This document shows positions 4,055 to 12,487 of a stretch of 64,000 bases of DNA, in pieces (the first letter of the stretch is position 1; each line of letters opens with the position of its first letter). The position numbers and the translations under genes were made by a program. The notes below the pieces were generated by a model, which saw only the letters and a program-made list of their open reading frames with translations, did not search any database and was not told where the DNA came from. Origin of the DNA: Spirochaetia bacterium (GTDB lineage Bacteria; Spirochaetota; Spirochaetia; DSM-2461); contig OY764216.1 in assembly GCA_963668315.1 (NCBI GenBank), positions 2,592,001-2,656,000 of the forward strand. The letters run 5' to 3'.

Positions 4055-4633
4055 ATGTCGGAACTGTTAACTCATTTTAAAAAAAATCCCCTTATGGCAG
4101 CCTGTAATCTGGATAACATGGAAGAAGCCGCCGGCAGCAGAGCGTCAATCATCCTGCTCATGAAGTGCTCCCTCAATCAGCTGATCAAGCCGGATTTTCC
4201 GGGAAAATGCGGGGACAAACCTCTATTCCTCCATGCCGATATGATCAAAGGGCTGTCGGGGGACAGGGAGTCGATACGATTCCTCCGGGATTTCATCCGT
4301 CCCGCCGGTCTCGTTTCCACCCGGGGGAATCTTATCCGCAATGCCAAGAAGGAAGGGTTCACGGTAATACAGCGTGTATTTCTCATAGACCATTCGTCCC
4401 TGGAAAATTCTCTGGAATCCATAAGGGATAACAAGCCCGACGGGGTGGAGCTGATGCCCGGTATCGCCCTGGATATCATTGAGCGGGTAAGGGGCGAGAT
4501 CGATTGCCCCCTTATCGCCTCCGGACTGATCAGCGAGCGGAAGCAGGTCGTCAATGCACTTAACAGGGGTGTTCAGGCCGTTTCCATGAGCCGCAGCGAA
4601 CTGTGGCATGAAGATTTTAGCCATATGGCTTAG
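4055..4633 (+). CDS. glpP: Glycerol-3-phosphate-responsive antiterminator
   Basis: FLHADMIKGL, IQRVFLIDHSSL, PDGVELMPG, LIASGLI motifs of the GlpP family. Confidence 0.85.
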   Translation: MSELLTHFKKNPLMAACNLDNMEEAAGSRASIILLMKCSLNQLIKPDFPGKCGDKPLFLHADMIKGLSGDRESIRFLRDFIRPAGLVSTRGNLIRNAKKEGFTVIQRVFLIDHSSLENSLESIRDNKPDGVELMPGIALDIIERVRGEIDCPLIASGLISERKQVVNALNRGVQAVSMSRSELWHEDFSHMA

Positions 4634-5431
4634 TTATTTCATTCCCGTAATGACAAACGATTCGGTAAATCTTTTCTGAAAAGCGAGAAAGAGAATGAGA
4701 AGGGGCAGTACGGCTATCAGAGTTCCGGCGGAAAGCACAGACCAGTCCACTCCCGATTCGGGGGCGGCGAAAATGGCCAGTCCCACGGTGAGAGGGCGGA
4801 CTCTGACCGAATTGGTGATGATGAGGGGCCACAGGAAATCGTTCCAGTGGTGGCTCACCGATACGAGCCCGTATGCGAGAAAGGTGGATTTGGAAAGGGG
4901 AATGAATATTCTCAGGAGTATTCCCACCCGCCCGCAGCCGTCGATAATGGCAGCTTCCTCCAAATCACGGGGGATGGTTTTAAAGCTTTGCCGCAAAAGG
5001 AAAATCCCGAAGGCGCTGGCGATATAGGGGAGAGCAATCCCGCGGATCGTATCGGTCAGATGGAGAAAGGAGATGGTGCGGTAGTTCTGGACGATGAGTA
5101 TTTCCGGCGTGATCAGAAGCTGAATCATCACAAGAGCGAAGGCTATCTCCCTGCCCTTGAATTCGAAGCGGGCGAAGGCATAGGCCGCCAGGGAGCAGAT
5201 GATGAACTGACCGGTGACGACTCCCATTACCAGAACTGTCGTGTTGAAGGTATACCGCAAAAAGGGAGCGTACTCCAGGGCCTTGAGTATATTGTCTCCC
5301 GTAATGTGAAAGGCGAACGCGGGGGACGTCACATACTCCGCAGGACAGAAGGCGGCCCAGATAGTAAACATCAGCGGAATGAGCCAGAGAATTCCCGCCG
5401 ATATAATCAGAATCATAGCGTATTTTTTCAT
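4634..5431 (-). CDS. Carbohydrate ABC permease (UgpE-like)
   Basis: EAA loop LEEAAIIDG, WNDFLWPL, multiple TM segments. Confidence 0.9.
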   Translation of the reverse strand: MKKYAMILIISAGILWLIPLMFTIWAAFCPAEYVTSPAFAFHITGDNILKALEYAPFLRYTFNTTVLVMGVVTGQFIICSLAAYAFARFEFKGREIAFALVMIQLLITPEILIVQNYRTISFLHLTDTIRGIALPYIASAFGIFLLRQSFKTIPRDLEEAAIIDGCGRVGILLRIFIPLSKSTFLAYGLVSVSHHWNDFLWPLIITNSVRVRPLTVGLAIFAAPESGVDWSVLSAGTLIAVLPLLILFLAFQKRFTESFVITGMK

Positions 5432-6306
5432 GAATAGTGTACCCTTTTCTCCATAACGGACATATTGAAGTAGGAGATTCCTCCCAGTATTAAAAGAAGT
5501 ATGACGGCCAGGGCCCCCGCATAGGATGTATCGAGGAAGGAGAAGGCCGATTCGTAGATGTAGTAAAGCAGCATATTTGTCGCGTTGTTGGGCCCACCCT
5601 TTGTCAGGATGAAAAGCTGGTCCACTCTCTTGAAGGCATTGAGAGTGGCATTGATCAATACGAAGAGAGTGGTGGGGGTCAAAAGGGGTAGGGTTATGGA
5701 CCGGAAAATACGAAAGGGGCCGGCTCCCTCCATGCCAGCGGCTTCGGCGTATTGGGCCGGAATCCCCTGTAAGGCGGCCAGATAGAAAACCATGAAAAAC
5801 CCCGATTCCTTCCAGACGGCCAGAATCATCATGGCGGGAAGGGCCGTTCGGGTATCCCCCAGCCAGTTGGGGCCGGGAATCCCTATGAGGGAAAGGGAAC
5901 GGTTCACAAAGCCGATCTCCGGGGTGTAAAAAAAGAGCCAGATATTGGCCGCCGCCACCATGGGCAGAATGGTGGGCGTGAAAAAGGAAAGCCTCACGGC
6001 TCCCCGGAAGGGAAGATTCCCGTTTACCGCCAGGGCCATGGCCAGCGCCAGGGCGACCGAGGGGATAACGGTAAACAGGGCGTAAAGGAGATTATTCGCC
6101 AGGGCTTTCTGAAATACCGGATCTCCCGCCAGGGTCGCATAGTTTTCCAGCCCCAGGAAGCGGGAAGGCCTCATCGCCGTTCCCGGATCGTAAACGGAGG
6201 AGAACAAAGTCGCCAGAATAGGCCAGTGGGTAAAAGTTAGCAAGAGCATCAGGGCGGGCGTGATGAGCAGCCAGCCCAACAGGGATTCTCTGTTCTTCTT
6301 CGTCAT
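5428..6306 (-). CDS. Carbohydrate ABC permease (UgpA-like)
   Basis: FLGLENY, YLAALQGIP..EAAGMEGA, TKGGP. Confidence 0.9.
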   Translation of the reverse strand: MTKKNRESLLGWLLITPALMLLLTFTHWPILATLFSSVYDPGTAMRPSRFLGLENYATLAGDPVFQKALANNLLYALFTVIPSVALALAMALAVNGNLPFRGAVRLSFFTPTILPMVAAANIWLFFYTPEIGFVNRSLSLIGIPGPNWLGDTRTALPAMMILAVWKESGFFMVFYLAALQGIPAQYAEAAGMEGAGPFRIFRSITLPLLTPTTLFVLINATLNAFKRVDQLFILTKGGPNNATNMLLYYIYESAFSFLDTSYAGALAVILLLILGGISYFNMSVMEKRVHYS

Positions 6307-6317
6307 AAGCGATTCTC

Positions 6318-7616
6318 CTAGCGGTAGGGCTTAAGCAGTTTGTCCGCTTCTTCCTGGGCGTTTGCCAGTGCCGATTCGGGAGTCTCCGCACCGGTCAAAG
6401 CGGCCTGGATCGCATCGTCGAGGAGCTTTCTCACGCGGCCCGTCTGGAATGTGGAAAGTTCGGCCGTGGCATACTCCAGCTGATCCCGTGCGACCTGAGC
6501 GGCGGGAAAACCGGCGGTGTATTCCGTGAGTGCCTCCGTATTATAGGCGGCGGGGCTGATTCCCATATATCCGGTCTTCTGACTCCAGAGAGCGGAGTTT
6601 TCCGGTGATGTCATATAGCGGATAAGTTTGACGGAAGCCCTTTTCTCCTCTTCGGTGGAGTTCTTGAACACGTAGAAATTGCCTCCTCCCGTGGGCGAGC
6701 CCCTTCTGACGGAAGAGGGCAGCATGGCGACTCCGAAGTCAAAGGAGGCGTTCTCCTTGACGGCTGTCAGATTTCCCGTTGAATGCCACATCATGGCGGT
6801 TTTCCCTTCGAGAAACTGCTGTCTGAGAGTTCCCCACTCGATGGTGCCCTCGGGCATGATCTTATGATCCCGGCCCAGGGAGAGCCAGAATTTCAGGGCG
6901 TCTACAACGGCGGGACGGTCAAAATAGGTTTCCGTGCCGTCGCCGCTCATAAGGACCTGGTTATTTTCCATGGCCAGGGCTCCGAACATCCAGTAGGGAT
7001 AACCGGTCGAGGGAATCATGAGACCCCAGCGGCTTCCGTCGGCCTTTGTCAGCGCCTTGCCCATGGAGATCATTTCATCCCAGTTCGCGGGAGGTGTTTC
7101 GGGGTCAAGTCCCGCGTCACGGAAGGCGTCTTTGTTGTAGTACATGACGATGGTGGATCTCTGGAAGGGAATTCCCCAGGTCTTTCCTTTGTATTGTCCG
7201 TTTTCCATAAGGGCGGGATAGAAGGAGTTAAGCCAGGCTTTCTCCTCATCGGTTTTCACGATGTCATCGAAGGGAACGATCACATCCTTCTCCATGAGAT
7301 CATAGATATCAATGGAAAAAAGAACGGAAAGCTGGGCGGGCTTGCCGCTTTCCAGGGCCGCCAGGGCTTTGATGCGGGCATCATTGTAATTTCCCGCATA
7401 GATGGCATTTACCTTGATGTCCGGATTCTCCGCCATAAATCCGTTTACCATTCCGTCAATAACTTCGGTTAAGGGACCGCCCACGGAAATGGGGTAGTAC
7501 ATGGTCAGTTCAACAGGACCGGTCGGAAGGGATTCGCCCTTTTCCTGATTTCCATTAGCCCATAATCCGATGGTCAAGATCATGAGAATTGTCAGAATCA
7601 TACTTCTCTTAAACAT
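6318..7616 (-). CDS. ABC substrate-binding protein (UgpB-like, glycerol-phosphate/glycerophosphodiester)
   Basis: Signal peptide; IPFQRSTIVMYYNKDAF and SPTGGGN. GAGGAG RBS precedes the ATG at 7616. Confidence 0.85.
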   Translation of the reverse strand: MFKRSMILTILMILTIGLWANGNQEKGESLPTGPVELTMYYPISVGGPLTEVIDGMVNGFMAENPDIKVNAIYAGNYNDARIKALAALESGKPAQLSVLFSIDIYDLMEKDVIVPFDDIVKTDEEKAWLNSFYPALMENGQYKGKTWGIPFQRSTIVMYYNKDAFRDAGLDPETPPANWDEMISMGKALTKADGSRWGLMIPSTGYPYWMFGALAMENNQVLMSGDGTETYFDRPAVVDALKFWLSLGRDHKIMPEGTIEWGTLRQQFLEGKTAMMWHSTGNLTAVKENASFDFGVAMLPSSVRRGSPTGGGNFYVFKNSTEEEKRASVKLIRYMTSPENSALWSQKTGYMGISPAAYNTEALTEYTAGFPAAQVARDQLEYATAELSTFQTGRVRKLLDDAIQAALTGAETPESALANAQEEADKLLKPYR

Positions 7617-7785
7617 ATTCACTCTCCTCAAATATTTTATCCCCGCTAAAAAGTGTTATCGCCGGGGACAGTACATAGTTATGGCAGAGCTGTTTTCCGT
7701 TTAGATTAGAAAAAAGGGAATTGATGATGGCCGTAGCAACCCCTTTCCTACAAGGGGAACAGAAGAGAAGCTCTGTTTACGGACA

Positions 7786-7968: not shown

Positions 7969-9858
7969 TTAACCCTTGTAAGCTCCGGGAAGGATCTCGT
8001 CGCCGTACTTTTCCTTAACGGCTTTGTACTTGGCGATGGCAGCGTCCCAGTACTCGTTCAGCTCCGCGGGAACGTTGCTGTCCTTGCTGGCGAAGAATTT
8101 CTTGGTTCTTTCCAGTTTTTCGATCAGCTTGGTACAGCGGAAGGTGAAGAGGTAGTCGTACTTCTCTTTGGTGAAGCCTTCATTGGGAAGGAATTCCTTG
8201 AAGAGGGCGTCCAGATCTTCAAACTTGGGAATCTTGCCGGAGGGAGTATCGATCGCATCGTACTCGCCGTGGATTCTGCCTTCGGCCCAGTGTACCCATA
8301 CTTTCTTAGCCAGCTTGCTGGTCATGAATTCGCCCTTGGGGCCTCTCATGAAGTAGTTGGTGGAGAAAACTTTGGGCTCTTCCTTCATGCCTTCCACGAA
8401 TTTGATATTGTTCATGGTGTACTCGCCGAGGGGGTAGGAGACAAAGTCCATGTTGGCCATGGGAGAAGCGGCTCTGACACCTTCCGCACCGAGGGTAGCT
8501 GCGGTGGTTTCGGACTCGAGGGTACAGGCCTTGAGGAGAATACCGTCTTTCCAGCTGGGAGATTCTTCACAGGGTACGGATGTGTCACTGTCCCGTCCAC
8601 CGTAGAGAATTCCGGAAACCTTGACACCTTCCTTGGCTTCGAAACCTTCTTTGTCGTAGTTTTCGAGGTAGTCCAGTCTCATGGTGTAGCGGGAGTTGGG
8701 GTGGGCTACGCCGATTTCCTTGCCCGTGGCGTCCTTGTTGCCTTCGGCCCACTCACCGGAGTGGTTCATTCCGGTCTTGGGAGCTTCAACGCCCTGGCCG
8801 AGCCAGTAAGGCATCTTGTCGGGACCCTGGAGGATGTTGGAGAAGATAACTTCCTGGTTCTTCATGCAGTTCTCGAAGATGACCGGATCGTCCTCGGCGT
8901 TAACATCTTTGATGATGCCGAAGATACCCTGCTCTACGTTTACGGCGCGGAATTCGCCGTTGATATTTCTGGCGTAGATGATGTCGTCACCGACGATTTT
9001 TTCGCCGGGGATCATGGCCGTAGCGGTTTTACCGCAGGCGGAGGGGTAGGCGCCGGAGAAATAGGTTTTTCTTCCGCCCTTTCCGATACAGGCCATGAGG
9101 AACATGTGCTCGCAGAGCCAGCCCTCTTCTCCGGCCTTATTGATAGCCAGTCTCATGGCGTGCTTTTTCAGGCCGACGGAGTTTCCGGCGTACTGAGCGT
9201 TCATGGAGTAGACGATATTGTTCTGGGTGTCCATGTAGATCCGTCTTTTATCAAGATTGACGGAGCATCCTCTTTCATCGACTTTTCCGGCGGAGTGGAT
9301 GAAACGGAAAAAATCGTCACAGCCGGGATTCTTCAGGAAGTGGGTGTAACCGGCTCTGTAGAGAATGGTTTCGGAGTGGGTTACGTAGGAGGAGTCGGTG
9401 AACTGGATACAGGGGATGGTGAAGGGGGATTCGGCAGGTCCTTCGGTGAAGAACTTGACGTAGGCTTCCTTGCCTTCCATGTTGCCTTTGGCAATTCCCA
9501 TGATCTCTTCCAGGGCTTCGTCGTAGGGGAGGGAGTTCATGGCTTTCATCTTTTCCATGTTTTCGGGGTAAACCATGTACCGGGTGTTGACTTTGTCGCG
9601 GGCCTGATCGCCGTAGCCATCCCAGTGGATGGTCTGCTCGGAATGGGCCATAGGATGTTCTTCCCCGTTTTCCAGGGCGACTTTTCTGATGTAGGCTTCG
9701 TCTTCTGCACTGTCATCGCACACGTAAATTGAGGCGGGATTGCAGTGTTCGGCAAAGGAACCAATAAATTCCATAACCTTGTCGTTCTTAAGAGCTTCCA
9801 GTTTCGCAAAGCTCTTGCCACTCATTTTGCTTTTTAACAAATCGGTGTAATCAGCCAT
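7969..9858 (-). CDS. Phosphoenolpyruvate carboxykinase (GTP), divergent/archaeal-like clade
   Basis: YAGNSVGLKK, GWLCEHM, YPSACGKT, IVGDDI, HPNSRY, ILYGGR. Confidence 0.9.
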   Translation of the reverse strand: MADYTDLLKSKMSGKSFAKLEALKNDKVMEFIGSFAEHCNPASIYVCDDSAEDEAYIRKVALENGEEHPMAHSEQTIHWDGYGDQARDKVNTRYMVYPENMEKMKAMNSLPYDEALEEIMGIAKGNMEGKEAYVKFFTEGPAESPFTIPCIQFTDSSYVTHSETILYRAGYTHFLKNPGCDDFFRFIHSAGKVDERGCSVNLDKRRIYMDTQNNIVYSMNAQYAGNSVGLKKHAMRLAINKAGEEGWLCEHMFLMACIGKGGRKTYFSGAYPSACGKTATAMIPGEKIVGDDIIYARNINGEFRAVNVEQGIFGIIKDVNAEDDPVIFENCMKNQEVIFSNILQGPDKMPYWLGQGVEAPKTGMNHSGEWAEGNKDATGKEIGVAHPNSRYTMRLDYLENYDKEGFEAKEGVKVSGILYGGRDSDTSVPCEESPSWKDGILLKACTLESETTAATLGAEGVRAASPMANMDFVSYPLGEYTMNNIKFVEGMKEEPKVFSTNYFMRGPKGEFMTSKLAKKVWVHWAEGRIHGEYDAIDTPSGKIPKFEDLDALFKEFLPNEGFTKEKYDYLFTFRCTKLIEKLERTKKFFASKDSNVPAELNEYWDAAIAKYKAVKEKYGDEILPGAYKG

Positions 9859-10067
9859 TTTAACTCCTTTGTGTTTATTTAATCTAAATCTTTAAGCTTT
9901 TCATTATATAGCTTTACAGAAAACGAATAAAAAGTCAATGATAAAGGCAACCCCGTCGTAAAGCCGGTATGATGTAGGGAAAAGGAGGGGGATGGAATTT
10001 ACAGAAACTTTTATCTGGGATATAAATAGATAAAAAAATACTTTGAAAAAAAACGAGGTCCGGCGGG

Positions 10068-10442
10068 ATGGAAAAAACAAAAGGAAAAATGGAAGCGGAG
10101 ATAAGCGAAGCGGTAATCCGCTTTGAAAAAGAGTTTATGGGAAGAGGGCCTCTTGAAACAAAAAGCTATATTCTCGACGATATGATTATCGTCAGGCTCA
10201 GAGATGTTCTGACCCCCGCGGAAAAAAAGCTGGCCCAGTCGGACGACCCCAACGACGGAAGAGTCCTTATAAAGAGAATGCGCCATGCGCTCCTGGAGAA
10301 GGGACGGCCCCTGCTGGAAGCGGCGATTTTCAATATAACCGGGGAGAGTGTTATTTCCGTGCATTCCGACTTGAGTACGAAGACGGGGGAGAAGATTATT
10401 ATATTCTCCCTGGATGGAAAACTATTTCTTTCAGAATCATAA
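10068..10442 (+). CDS. DUF2294 / MpsC-family protein
   Basis: KTKGKMEAEIS...FEKEFMGRGP...LTPAEK...HSDLSTKTGEKIIIF signature. Confidence 0.85.
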   Translation: MEKTKGKMEAEISEAVIRFEKEFMGRGPLETKSYILDDMIIVRLRDVLTPAEKKLAQSDDPNDGRVLIKRMRHALLEKGRPLLEAAIFNITGESVISVHSDLSTKTGEKIIIFSLDGKLFLSES

Positions 10443-10444
10443 TT

Positions 10445-10663
10445 GAGGCGTCCGGTTTATTGACGAAAAGCCATATTTGATTAAAATGATCCTTGCTCGT
10501 ATTCAGGGGAGAAAGGGTTGAATAAACCGGTTCTCCTAAGAATCCCGCAGCCCTTTCCAACCCAAGGCTTGCATAGGTCCGGAATATCCGGGCGGCTGCT
10601 AAGATAGGGGATTATACAATATCCGGCAGGCTTGGAAAAATATGACCATGCCGGGACAAGGAG
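10445..10663 (+). promoter_or_regulatory. Structured leader with mutually exclusive helices (candidate RNA switch)
   Basis: Several overlapping complementary segments between the DUF2294 stop and the pckG RBS (see findings). Confidence 0.5.
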
Positions 10664-10669
10664 TAAATA

Positions 10670-12487
10670 ATGTCTGTTCAAACAAAACATGCAAAATTGA
10701 ATGCATGGGTTAAGGAGATCGCCGATCTCTGTACCCCCGACAGTGTAGTTCTCTGTGACGGAAGTCAGGCGGAATACGATGAAATGATTAAAATCTGTGT
10801 GGATGGCGGTCTGGCTATTCCCCTGAACGAGAAGAAGAGACCCGGTTCGGTTCTTTTCTCTTCCGATCCCTCCGACGTGGCCCGTGTCGAAGCGCGTACC
10901 TATATCGCTTCCGAGACCAAAGAAGCCGCCGGTCCCACCAACAACTGGATCGATCCCAAAGAACTGAAGACCACGATGAAAGGTTATTACCAGGGATGTA
11001 TGAAGGGCAGAACCATGTACGTGATCCCCTTCTCCATGGGACCTGTCGGTTCCAACATCGCCAAGATCGGTGTTGAAATCACCGACTCCGCCTATGTTGT
11101 AGCCAATATGCACATCATGACCCGCGTGGGAAGCAAAGTTATGGACGTTCTCGGTTCCGACGGTGAGTTCATCGAGTGTCTCCACTCCGTGGGCAAGCCC
11201 CTGGCCGAAGGCGAAAGCGACGAGGGCAAATGGCCCTGCGCTCCCATCGAAGATAAATATATCTCCCACTTCCCCGAAACAAGACAGATCTGGTCTTACG
11301 GTTCCGGTTACGGTGGAAACGCTCTTCTGGGTAAGAAGTGTCTGGCCCTGAGAATCGCCAGCGTTGTCGCCCGTGATGAGGGATGGCTCGCCGAGCACAT
11401 GCTCATTCTCAAGATCACCAGCCCCGAAGGCGTTGTCAAGAACGTGGCAGCCGCTTTCCCCTCCGCCTGCGGAAAAACCAACCTGGCCATGCTTATCCCC
11501 ACCATTCCCGGCTGGAAGGTGGAAACCATCGGTGACGATATCGCCTGGATGAAGTACGGTAAAGACGGAAGACTCTACGCCATCAACCCCGAAGCGGGAT
11601 TTTTCGGCGTTGCTCCCGGTACATCGGACGACTCCAACCCCAGCGCCATGAAATCCATTGAGAAAAACACCATTTTCACCAACGTTGCCCTCACTGAGGA
11701 CAAGGATATCTGGTGGGAAGGAATCGGATACGACGCTCCCGGCAAGCTGATCGACTGGAAAGGCAACGAGTGGGTTCAGGACAAAGGCAACAAGGAACAG
11801 GCTCCCGCGGCCCATCCCAATGCCCGTTTTACCGCTCCCGCTTCCCAGTGTCCCGTAATCGCTTCCGAATGGGAAGATCCCAAGGGTGTACCGATTGACG
11901 CTATCCTCTTCGGCGGACGCCGCCCCAGCACCATTCCCCTGGTTCACCAGGCCAAGAGCTGGAACCACGGTGTTTTCATGGGCTCCATCGTAGGTTCGGA
12001 AGTAACCGCCGCCGCTCTGGACATCAAGGCCGGTACCATCCGCCGCGATCCCTTTGCCATGCTTCCCTTCTGCGGATACCACATGGGAGAATACTTCAAG
12101 CACTGGATCGAAGTGGGCAAGAAATCCACCGAAGACAAGCTTCCCAAGATTTTCTTTGTCAACTGGTTCCGCAAGACCGCCGAAGGCAAATGGCTCTGGC
12201 CCGGTTACGGTGACAACAGCCGCGTTCTGAAGTGGGTTTTCCAGCAGTGTGAAGGCACCGGTGATTTCGTTGAGACTCCCATCGGCAACATGCCCACCAT
12301 TGACGCTATCGACAGACCCGAAGGTGTTTCTGCCGAGGATATGAAGGAACTCCTTTCCGTTGATAAGGAAGGATGGCTCAAGGAGCTGGCCGACGTTCGG
12401 GACAATCACTATCCCAAATTCGGCGACAAGCTTCCTTCCGAGCTGACCGAATTCCTGAACTCCGTTGAAGCTTCCCTCAAGGGCTGA
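10670..12487 (+). CDS. pckG: Phosphoenolpyruvate carboxykinase (GTP), canonical clade
   Basis: [67 protein letters not shown]. Confidence 0.95.

Follow-up and report, generated by a model that had tools for sequence, protein, structure and literature searches.

The locus and its promoter

In the window, by which we mean the whole 64,000-nt stretch of spirochaete DNA analysed here, the gene for the DUF2294 protein MpsC lies upstream of pckG, which encodes a GTP-dependent phosphoenolpyruvate carboxykinase (PEPCK), and the region between them holds a predicted promoter, a series of RNA hairpins and a Shine-Dalgarno sequence (Table 1). The genome to which the window belongs (G000) gave a single match to mpsC, and its closest named relatives are Spirochaetales. 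The gene sits between two PEPCK genes, an arrangement that is identical in genome G003; a divergent PEPCK-like gene (26–28% to pckG) also occurs in four genomes that contain neither mpsC nor a canonical pckG. Upstream of the second PEPCK gene of the window, the core motif of the leader described below was not found. Farther upstream, a plus-strand ORF of 192 aa (4055–4633) resembles what we take, from its translation, to be a GlpP glycerol-3-phosphate antiterminator, and convergent with it on the minus strand (4634–7631) is what is presumably, again from the translation, an ABC transporter for a sugar or glycerol phosphate.

Both promoter boxes of pckG and their spacing are conserved in all six aligned leaders, and from the sequence we infer that the transcript starts near 10495, which would give a predicted leader of 175 nt (10495–10669). 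An 11-codon frame at 10486–10521 was considered as a leader peptide and rejected: it begins inside the −10 box, has no ribosome-binding site (RBS), and its ATG is absent at that place in leaders L002 and L003.

Table 1. Features of the mpsC–pckG region, in window coordinates
Feature	Coordinates	Strand	Remarks
Second GTP-PEPCK gene, 629 aa	7969..9858	-	Divergent, head to head with mpsC
mpsC/DUF2294	10068..10442	+	124 aa; Pfam PF10057, E 4e-36; proposed trans-acting RNA-binding factor
Hairpin 1 of the initial annotation	10447..10472	+	Overlaps the −35 box; outside the conserved element
Predicted sigma-70 promoter of pckG	10460..10487	+	TTGACG, 16 nt, TAAAAT; 10 of 12 consensus positions matched
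Hairpin U1	10495..10551	+	Basal AG/AA loop 10505–06/10538–39; apical AG/GG loop 10514–15/10529–30; predicted MpsC site
Alternative fold	10541..10613	+	10547–52 with 10594–99 plus 10541–46 with 10608–13; opens the bases of U1 and U2
Hairpin U2	10561..10609	+	CCC/GGG base, 4x4 purine-rich loop, CUU/AAG stem, AG/GG-containing loop, GC-rich apical stem
AU-rich spacer	10610..10622	+	G003 has a run of 9 U at the equivalent place
RBS-proximal hairpin	10623..10654	+	No U-tract; predicted in every state, P 0.88–0.99
Shine-Dalgarno AAGGAG	10658..10663	+	6 nt upstream of the pckG ATG; read from the sequence
pckG, GTP-dependent PEPCK, 605 aa	10670..12487	+	PF00821, PF17297; proposed regulated gene

A conserved leader with two hairpins

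The segment 10495–10669 is almost certainly a real structured leader. Its hairpins fold more stably than their shuffled counterparts (z −2.74 for U1, −2.35 for U2 and −2.52 for the RBS-proximal hairpin, in regions chosen by eye), and both U1 and U2, folded separately, form hairpins in 11 of the 11 spirochaete leaders compared, a set that leaves aside the longer leaders of L007, L013 and L016. Within the six aligned leaders, the CUU/AAG stem of U2 is conserved in five and its CCG/CGG core in all, and the U1 fold contains a 2x2 loop of the type AG/(AG, GG, AA) in 9 of the 11 leaders, against 1–8 of 200 shuffles of each. Among the five alignable leaders, which are related sequences from which the structure was partly derived and in which two U2 helices are out of register, 12 base pairs are changed on both sides (11/15 within U1), and the covariation score is 0.481, compared with 0.234 for shuffled alignments (0/500) and at most 0.165 for slid controls. 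The closest relative, represented by contigs X5 and X6 of one sample, shows 64 differences in 951 nt, and the four listed changes within 10495–10611 are all confined to the apical loops of the two hairpins. The RBS-proximal hairpin stands at equal distance in L002, L004 and G003.

The initial annotation recognised no known riboswitch here, and Rfam 15 bears this out, with no match above gathering score in the window and a best E of 3.5 in the region 9800–10750; across 20 related loci it finds nothing at the element, and only T-box and tRNA matches elsewhere. A model of the window-type leader (R2), in which 5 of 26 pairs (two U2 helices) are out of register so that U2 is understated, was run over 61 genomes; it recovered the four on which it was trained, gave three further matches that are weak (E 0.016–0.086), and does not match L005 or L063–L068. 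Leaders of the L063 type were left out of register with the window type by MAFFT and were compared by folding instead, and L147 shares 11 nt with the end of L001. Since a descriptor built on U1 has U1 as its sole match in the 5.6-Mb genome, nothing points to a regulon in G000.

A 9-nt direct repeat, AATATCCGG, lies at 10583–10591 and 10618–10626, and the second copy of AATATCCGG could substitute for the first in the apical stem of U2. The leaders L066 and L068 also duplicate the 3′ end of U2, ahead of their terminators.

The inverted repeat at the 5′ end

All the pairings on which the initial annotation built its proposal are present in the sequence and in the pair lists: the hairpin at 10447–10472; the exact 10-bp inverted repeat of 10452–10461 with 10521–10530; the GGAGAA/TTCTCC pairing within 10508–10536; the helix of 10511–10520 with 10548–10557, which has 10 pairs including one G-U; the GCAGCC/GGCTGC pairing of 10547–10552 with 10594–10599; and the stem of 10623–10628 with 10649–10654, which ends 3 nt upstream of the RBS. 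What fails is the role given to the first two as parts of a switch, for both coincide with the −35 box, ahead of the predicted start, and are not conserved. Because the promoter runs through hairpin 1, a transcript that starts near 10495 would lack it. A start site downstream of the proposed helices had been named as a counter-argument; the predicted start, near 10495, lies downstream of hairpin 1 and at about the 5′ end of U1.

Hairpin 1 folds in an ordinary manner (z −1.24, 33 of 300 shuffles), the region as a whole has z −1.58 (13 of 200 shuffles), and 35 of 1000 shuffles contain an exact inverted repeat of at least 10 bp. Covariation in homologues, likewise proposed as a check, is seen as compensatory changes in U1 and U2, but neither hairpin 1 nor the 10-bp repeat is kept in any of the five aligned homologues. 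In the closest relative, where 10 of the 13 differences counted in 10400–10700 are listed, three of those ten hit hairpin 1, and two of the ten repeat pairs are broken and two turned into G-U. No leader other than those of the window and L001 has all pairs of the helix of 10511–10520 with 10548–10557. The suggested search pattern, AGGC..CC..AAAGCC, gave at least four scattered matches over 54 loci, none of them directly after mpsC among the matches listed. The 10-bp repeat, and the 5′ switch with it, is a product of chance. It can still be asked whether hairpin 1 and the repeat act in a transcript that reads through from mpsC, and in folding models a transcript from 10443 would form the repeat transiently (P 0.97 at lengths to 10531–10540) to the exclusion of U1; set against the frequency of comparable repeats in shuffled sequence, the breakage of this one in the closest relative and in all five homologues, and the inversion of mpsC in five relatives, such a switch is hardly credible.

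A look-alike of hairpin 1 on the plus strand at 9946–9967, upstream of mpsC, carries about 10 changes in the closest relative and is probably also a chance occurrence; it directly follows a weak promoter-like site at 9913–9942.

Terminators, competing folds and access to the RBS

The relationship between U2 and a terminator differs among the leaders. In L003, L005 and L064 the two overlap by 3–5 nt, and forcing U2 to form in the models opens the base of the terminator, whose probability falls from 0.87–1.0 to 0–0.24. The terminators of L063 and L065 begin 1 nt past the modelled U2, and those of L066 and L068 are displaced and unaffected by it. A U-tract is absent from 3 of the 10 complete leaders, namely the window, L002 and L004, in which a hairpin without U's lies 3–5 nt upstream of the RBS; the window has 3 U in 8 nt, compared with 9 U at the spacer of G003. 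The three leaders have a common geometry, with 58–59 nt between U2 and the ATG and the hairpin 11–12 nt after U2, and L002 and L004 belong to another genus than the window.

In the window leader, the alternative fold and the two-hairpin fold are iso-energetic in the models (−42.4 and −42.2 kcal/mol, respectively). A helix at the place of the GCAGCC/GGCTGC pairing is found in five of six leaders with its letters changed, but the window and L005 are the only ones where it competes energetically. In L002 and L004 the two hairpins are favoured over the cross helix by about 10 kcal/mol, and L003 lacks it. The RBS is modelled as unpaired at 0.37–0.48 in all states of the window leader transcript, and access to it is predicted at 0.31 versus 0.38 between the folds of the window and at 0.78 versus 0.72 between those of L002. 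Because modelled access is unchanged between folds, an effect on the RBS is unsupported.

The proposal with which the initial annotation ended, an undescribed attenuator possibly bound by DUF2294, is partly supported. It was right that pckG has an uncatalogued, conserved and structured leader with competing folds and a tie to MpsC, but the anatomy differs: hairpin 1 and the 10-bp repeat are non-conserved, and the conserved core consists of two hairpins with tandem purine loops.

A family of hairpins linked to mpsC

Bacillota-type loci have a canonical hairpin after mpsC, a compact GG-AAG-AC ... GU-AAG-CC structure with an apical AG/AG loop, the final bases of which double as the start of an intrinsic terminator. 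Of the 31 loci L024–L054, most of them from Firmicutes, a model of this hairpin (R1) built from 23 loci matches 28 at E < 1e-4, 23 of them training rows, and in its alignment, which is fitted to the model and includes three weak matches, 10 of 13 pairs are changed on both sides. Other spirochaetes also have the canonical hairpin beside mpsC, in one case immediately upstream of pckG (L083), and in Desulfuromonadales loci the leaders are longer, with terminators and with loops of the AAG/AAG type or AG/GG. The genes downstream, as identified from 16 proteins chosen by hand, encode PurE, PurK, PurC, Sua5, biotin carboxylase, SbtA, carbonic anhydrase, the CODH epsilon subunit and an Mrp/NuoL-like subunit, most of which use or supply CO2 or bicarbonate, and also DUF4914, DUF3360 and an MFS carrier, which have no evident link to CO2.

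Genes of the DUF4914 type (~625 aa) are the most frequent after the canonical hairpin (L024, L028, L031, L036–L039 and others; checked against Pfam for L024), and their position suggests a carboxylation enzyme, although BLASTP showed no resemblance to pckG (E 0.19). Canonical hairpins in tandem, or at sites other than the 3′ end of mpsC, occur at L178 and L189 (G444), L165 and L188 (G450), L173, L163 and L145; the copies away from mpsC each have a terminator and precede purE or unnamed genes of 380–460 aa. We regard these scattered copies as small regulons.

The R1 model has no match in the window, and none in G000 among the 150 of 1399 candidates scored. Because R1 does not match the window and R2 strongly matches only its training genomes, the link between the window leader and this family rests on loops, position and gene context. 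The window leader has an apical AG/RG tandem loop and a basal purine loop, adjoins mpsC and precedes a gene for a CO2/bicarbonate-using enzyme. It shares with the canonical hairpin the purine loops, the place beside mpsC and that before pckG, but differs in having two long hairpins and its own promoter after mpsC, and in lacking both the GG-AAG-AC/GU-AAG-CC ends and a U-tract.

The tie between leader and MpsC

Among 61 relatives, 14 have mpsC, 15 have pckG of the window type and 11 have both, and in all 11 of the latter the two genes are adjacent. In five of these mpsC is inverted and the leader still lies ahead of pckG; the RNA is therefore a leader of pckG, on which MpsC would act in trans. 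With a filter designed on the positives, the core motif is found before 10 of 13 pckG genes beside mpsC versus none of four in genomes without mpsC. Among 101 relatives of G407, which as kin are not independent, the canonical hairpin was detected in 20 of the 26 genomes that have MpsC and in 5 of the 75 that do not. One of these five matches is poor and four are true copies, from the clostridia G431, G434, G445 and G448 (L182, L185, L180 and L181, respectively), in which the hairpin and a terminator precede purE and mpsC was not found. Three of the four copies are nearly identical, and they show mild drift, with modestly shortened U-tracts (4–6 rather than 6–8 U in 8 nt) and a 5′ GGAAGAC that reads GGAAGAT; they either argue against a strict need for MpsC or mark decay after the loss of mpsC. 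Distant matches to the MpsC domain lie in frames of 184–272 aa in G123, G099, G049, G426, G453 and G482, which are probably fusions.

MpsC carries PF10057 as its sole Pfam domain and has no ANTAR match. Its conserved residues are R26, R43, K69, R72, R80, H99 and the G25-R26-G27-P28 segment, and the AF2 model (pLDDT 92.8) predicts a small alpha/beta domain. By sequence, none of the solved structures is related to it (best E 1.1); a Foldseek search returned nothing under E 0.001, and an Atlas search gave no match outside PF10057. Structural comparison of the model with the KH type II/RbfA-like RNA-binding fold places RbfA at Z 5.6 (rmsd 3.8, 88 residues aligned) and Era at Z 4.8, with unrelated folds reaching Z 6.7; these searches do not establish a new fold. 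In Staphylococcus aureus, expression of mpsA drops 1.7–2.5-fold in 5% CO2, a delta-mpsC strain grows normally in air, and the gene was set aside as non-functional (PMC6689103); published work on MpsC describes it as dispensable for growth (PMC6689103, PMC8552792).

A proposed mechanism and its alternatives

The reading that we prefer, with a probability of roughly 0.55, is that MpsC binds the purine loops of the leader in the manner of a BglG/LicT antiterminator, likely reporting CO2 or bicarbonate. On gene context and distribution, MpsC is probably the leader-binding factor; we give even odds to CO2/bicarbonate as the signal, and the chances that the window copy still switches are just as evenly balanced. 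Binding likely switches the downstream genes on, although we infer all three of binding, signal and direction. In this scheme MpsC would bind the purine-rich internal loops of U1 and U2 and hold the leader in its ON fold. When no active MpsC is present, the 3′ arm of U1 would pair with the 3′ arm of U2 (GCAGCC/GGCTGC plus 10541–10546 with 10608–10613), and this cross pairing would free the terminator strand and stop transcription; with MpsC bound, U1 and U2 would be held in place and transcription would read through, in the simplest case at low CO2/bicarbonate, so that the leader would tune PEP carboxykinase to the supply of CO2/bicarbonate. Because the U-tract has eroded in the window genome, the leader here probably causes weak termination or pausing or else affects the stability of the mRNA.

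The erosion of the U-tract invites a different conclusion, namely that the family is indeed an MpsC attenuator but that the window copy has lost its terminator, leaving pckG constitutive and the hairpins only to stabilise the mRNA. The comparison with the U-run of G003 and the modelled RBS-proximal hairpin and RBS access, identical in all states, fit such a relic. Against it, the closest relative has the same stems and internal loops, its changes falling in apical loops and flanks; mpsC is intact and adjacent; the terminator-less geometry recurs in another genus; and the two folds are iso-energetic. We consider a relic unlikely. Alternatively, MpsC may bind the leader and act on translation or mRNA decay, with the AU-rich spacer as a standby or nuclease site, or may repress. 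The hairpin placed 3–5 nt before the RBS, with its spacing conserved in the window, L002, L004 and G003, and the pairing of the start of the spacer in the alternative fold would suit this, but nearest-neighbour models predict no change in RBS access and the homologues with terminators place U2 as an antiterminator, which makes it quite improbable.

It may also be that the sensor is the RNA, as a riboswitch for a small ligand or an ion (bicarbonate, Na+ or a carboxylation intermediate), with MpsC as a co-regulated passenger. The four clostridial genomes that retain hairpin and terminator without mpsC would fit this, tandem purine loops can bind ions, and the dispensability of mpsC for growth of S. 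aureus is compatible with a passenger. Co-regulation, however, is at odds with the position of mpsC, which is either divergent from the element or located upstream of it and is therefore not controlled by it; further, the hairpin is simple with few invariant bases, MpsC occurs in 20 of 25 hairpin-positive genomes, and the copies without mpsC drift. A riboswitch of this kind seems improbable, if somewhat less so than an action on translation or decay.

To return to antitermination by MpsC, the leader RNA is real and uncatalogued, and if MpsC does bind it, it would be a variant form of protein-dependent antitermination. A bolder and more doubtful generalisation would have the MpsC/DUF2294 proteins be undescribed RNA-binding CO2/bicarbonate sensors that read tandem purine loops in Spirochaetota, Bacillota and Desulfobacterota, with the spirochaete leader a cooperative two-site version, rewired in its lineage from termination to the control of PEP carboxykinase translation or mRNA decay.

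Comparison with known systems

To our knowledge, how non-autotrophic bacteria sense CO2/bicarbonate and adjust their carboxylases and carbon pumps is largely open, and a 124-aa orphan protein together with an RNA of 45–115 nt makes CO2/bicarbonate sensing directly testable. If true, the proposed mechanism adds a new family of RNA-binding antiterminators, to which the window contributes a twin-hairpin subtype and naturally occurring versions that either have or lack a terminator, from which output can be studied; the genomes with the gene inversion show that the RNA belongs to pckG and that MpsC would act in trans. In gene order, a parallel in Bacillus subtilis is HutP with its hut operon terminator, where the gene of a small single-domain regulator lies directly upstream of its terminator, as mpsC does. 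HutP is activated by histidine and recognises UAG repeats in single-stranded RNA; in the sequence search of solved structures, no HutP chain matched MpsC. We found no description of the leader RNA or of MpsC as a regulator in the literature searched, nor in the main text of PMC7266159, PMC11109978 or PMC8552792, although the supplements of motif-discovery papers might include the RNA with a different name.

The ANTAR leaders of EutV, NasR and AmiR consist of tandem P1 and P2 hairpins, the second of which overlaps a terminator (PMC3369936). The window has the two hairpins, but terminator overlap is present only in some of its homologues, and whereas ANTAR proteins read A1 and G4 in the apical loops, the apical loops here, of 3–7 nt, vary freely in length and sequence. 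In the RAT hairpins of the BglG/SacY/LicT systems, two conserved internal loops interrupt the stem, the apical loop varies and the 3′ end also forms part of an intrinsic terminator (PMC5393181), exactly the layout of the canonical MpsC hairpin. U1 of the window also has two internal loops (AG/AA and AG/GG), but the window has two hairpins and, where the RAT 3′ end shares 6–10 nt with the terminator, no U-tract. The proteins and targets differ as well: the cognate CAT domain of RAT (PF03123) was not found in G000, which is 97% complete, with a positive control in 4 of 14 genomes, whereas MpsC is a single 124-aa domain; the MpsC-linked loops are AG/RG and AAG/AAG or AG/AA, and the genes are those of CO2/bicarbonate enzymes instead of sugar uptake. 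With no CAT domain in G000 and no conserved apical-loop bases, the leader belongs to neither the RAT nor the ANTAR class. In the RAT system a dimer reads the two internal loops of the hairpin, whose base overlaps a terminator (PMC5393181), and the leader likely works as that hairpin does with LicT.
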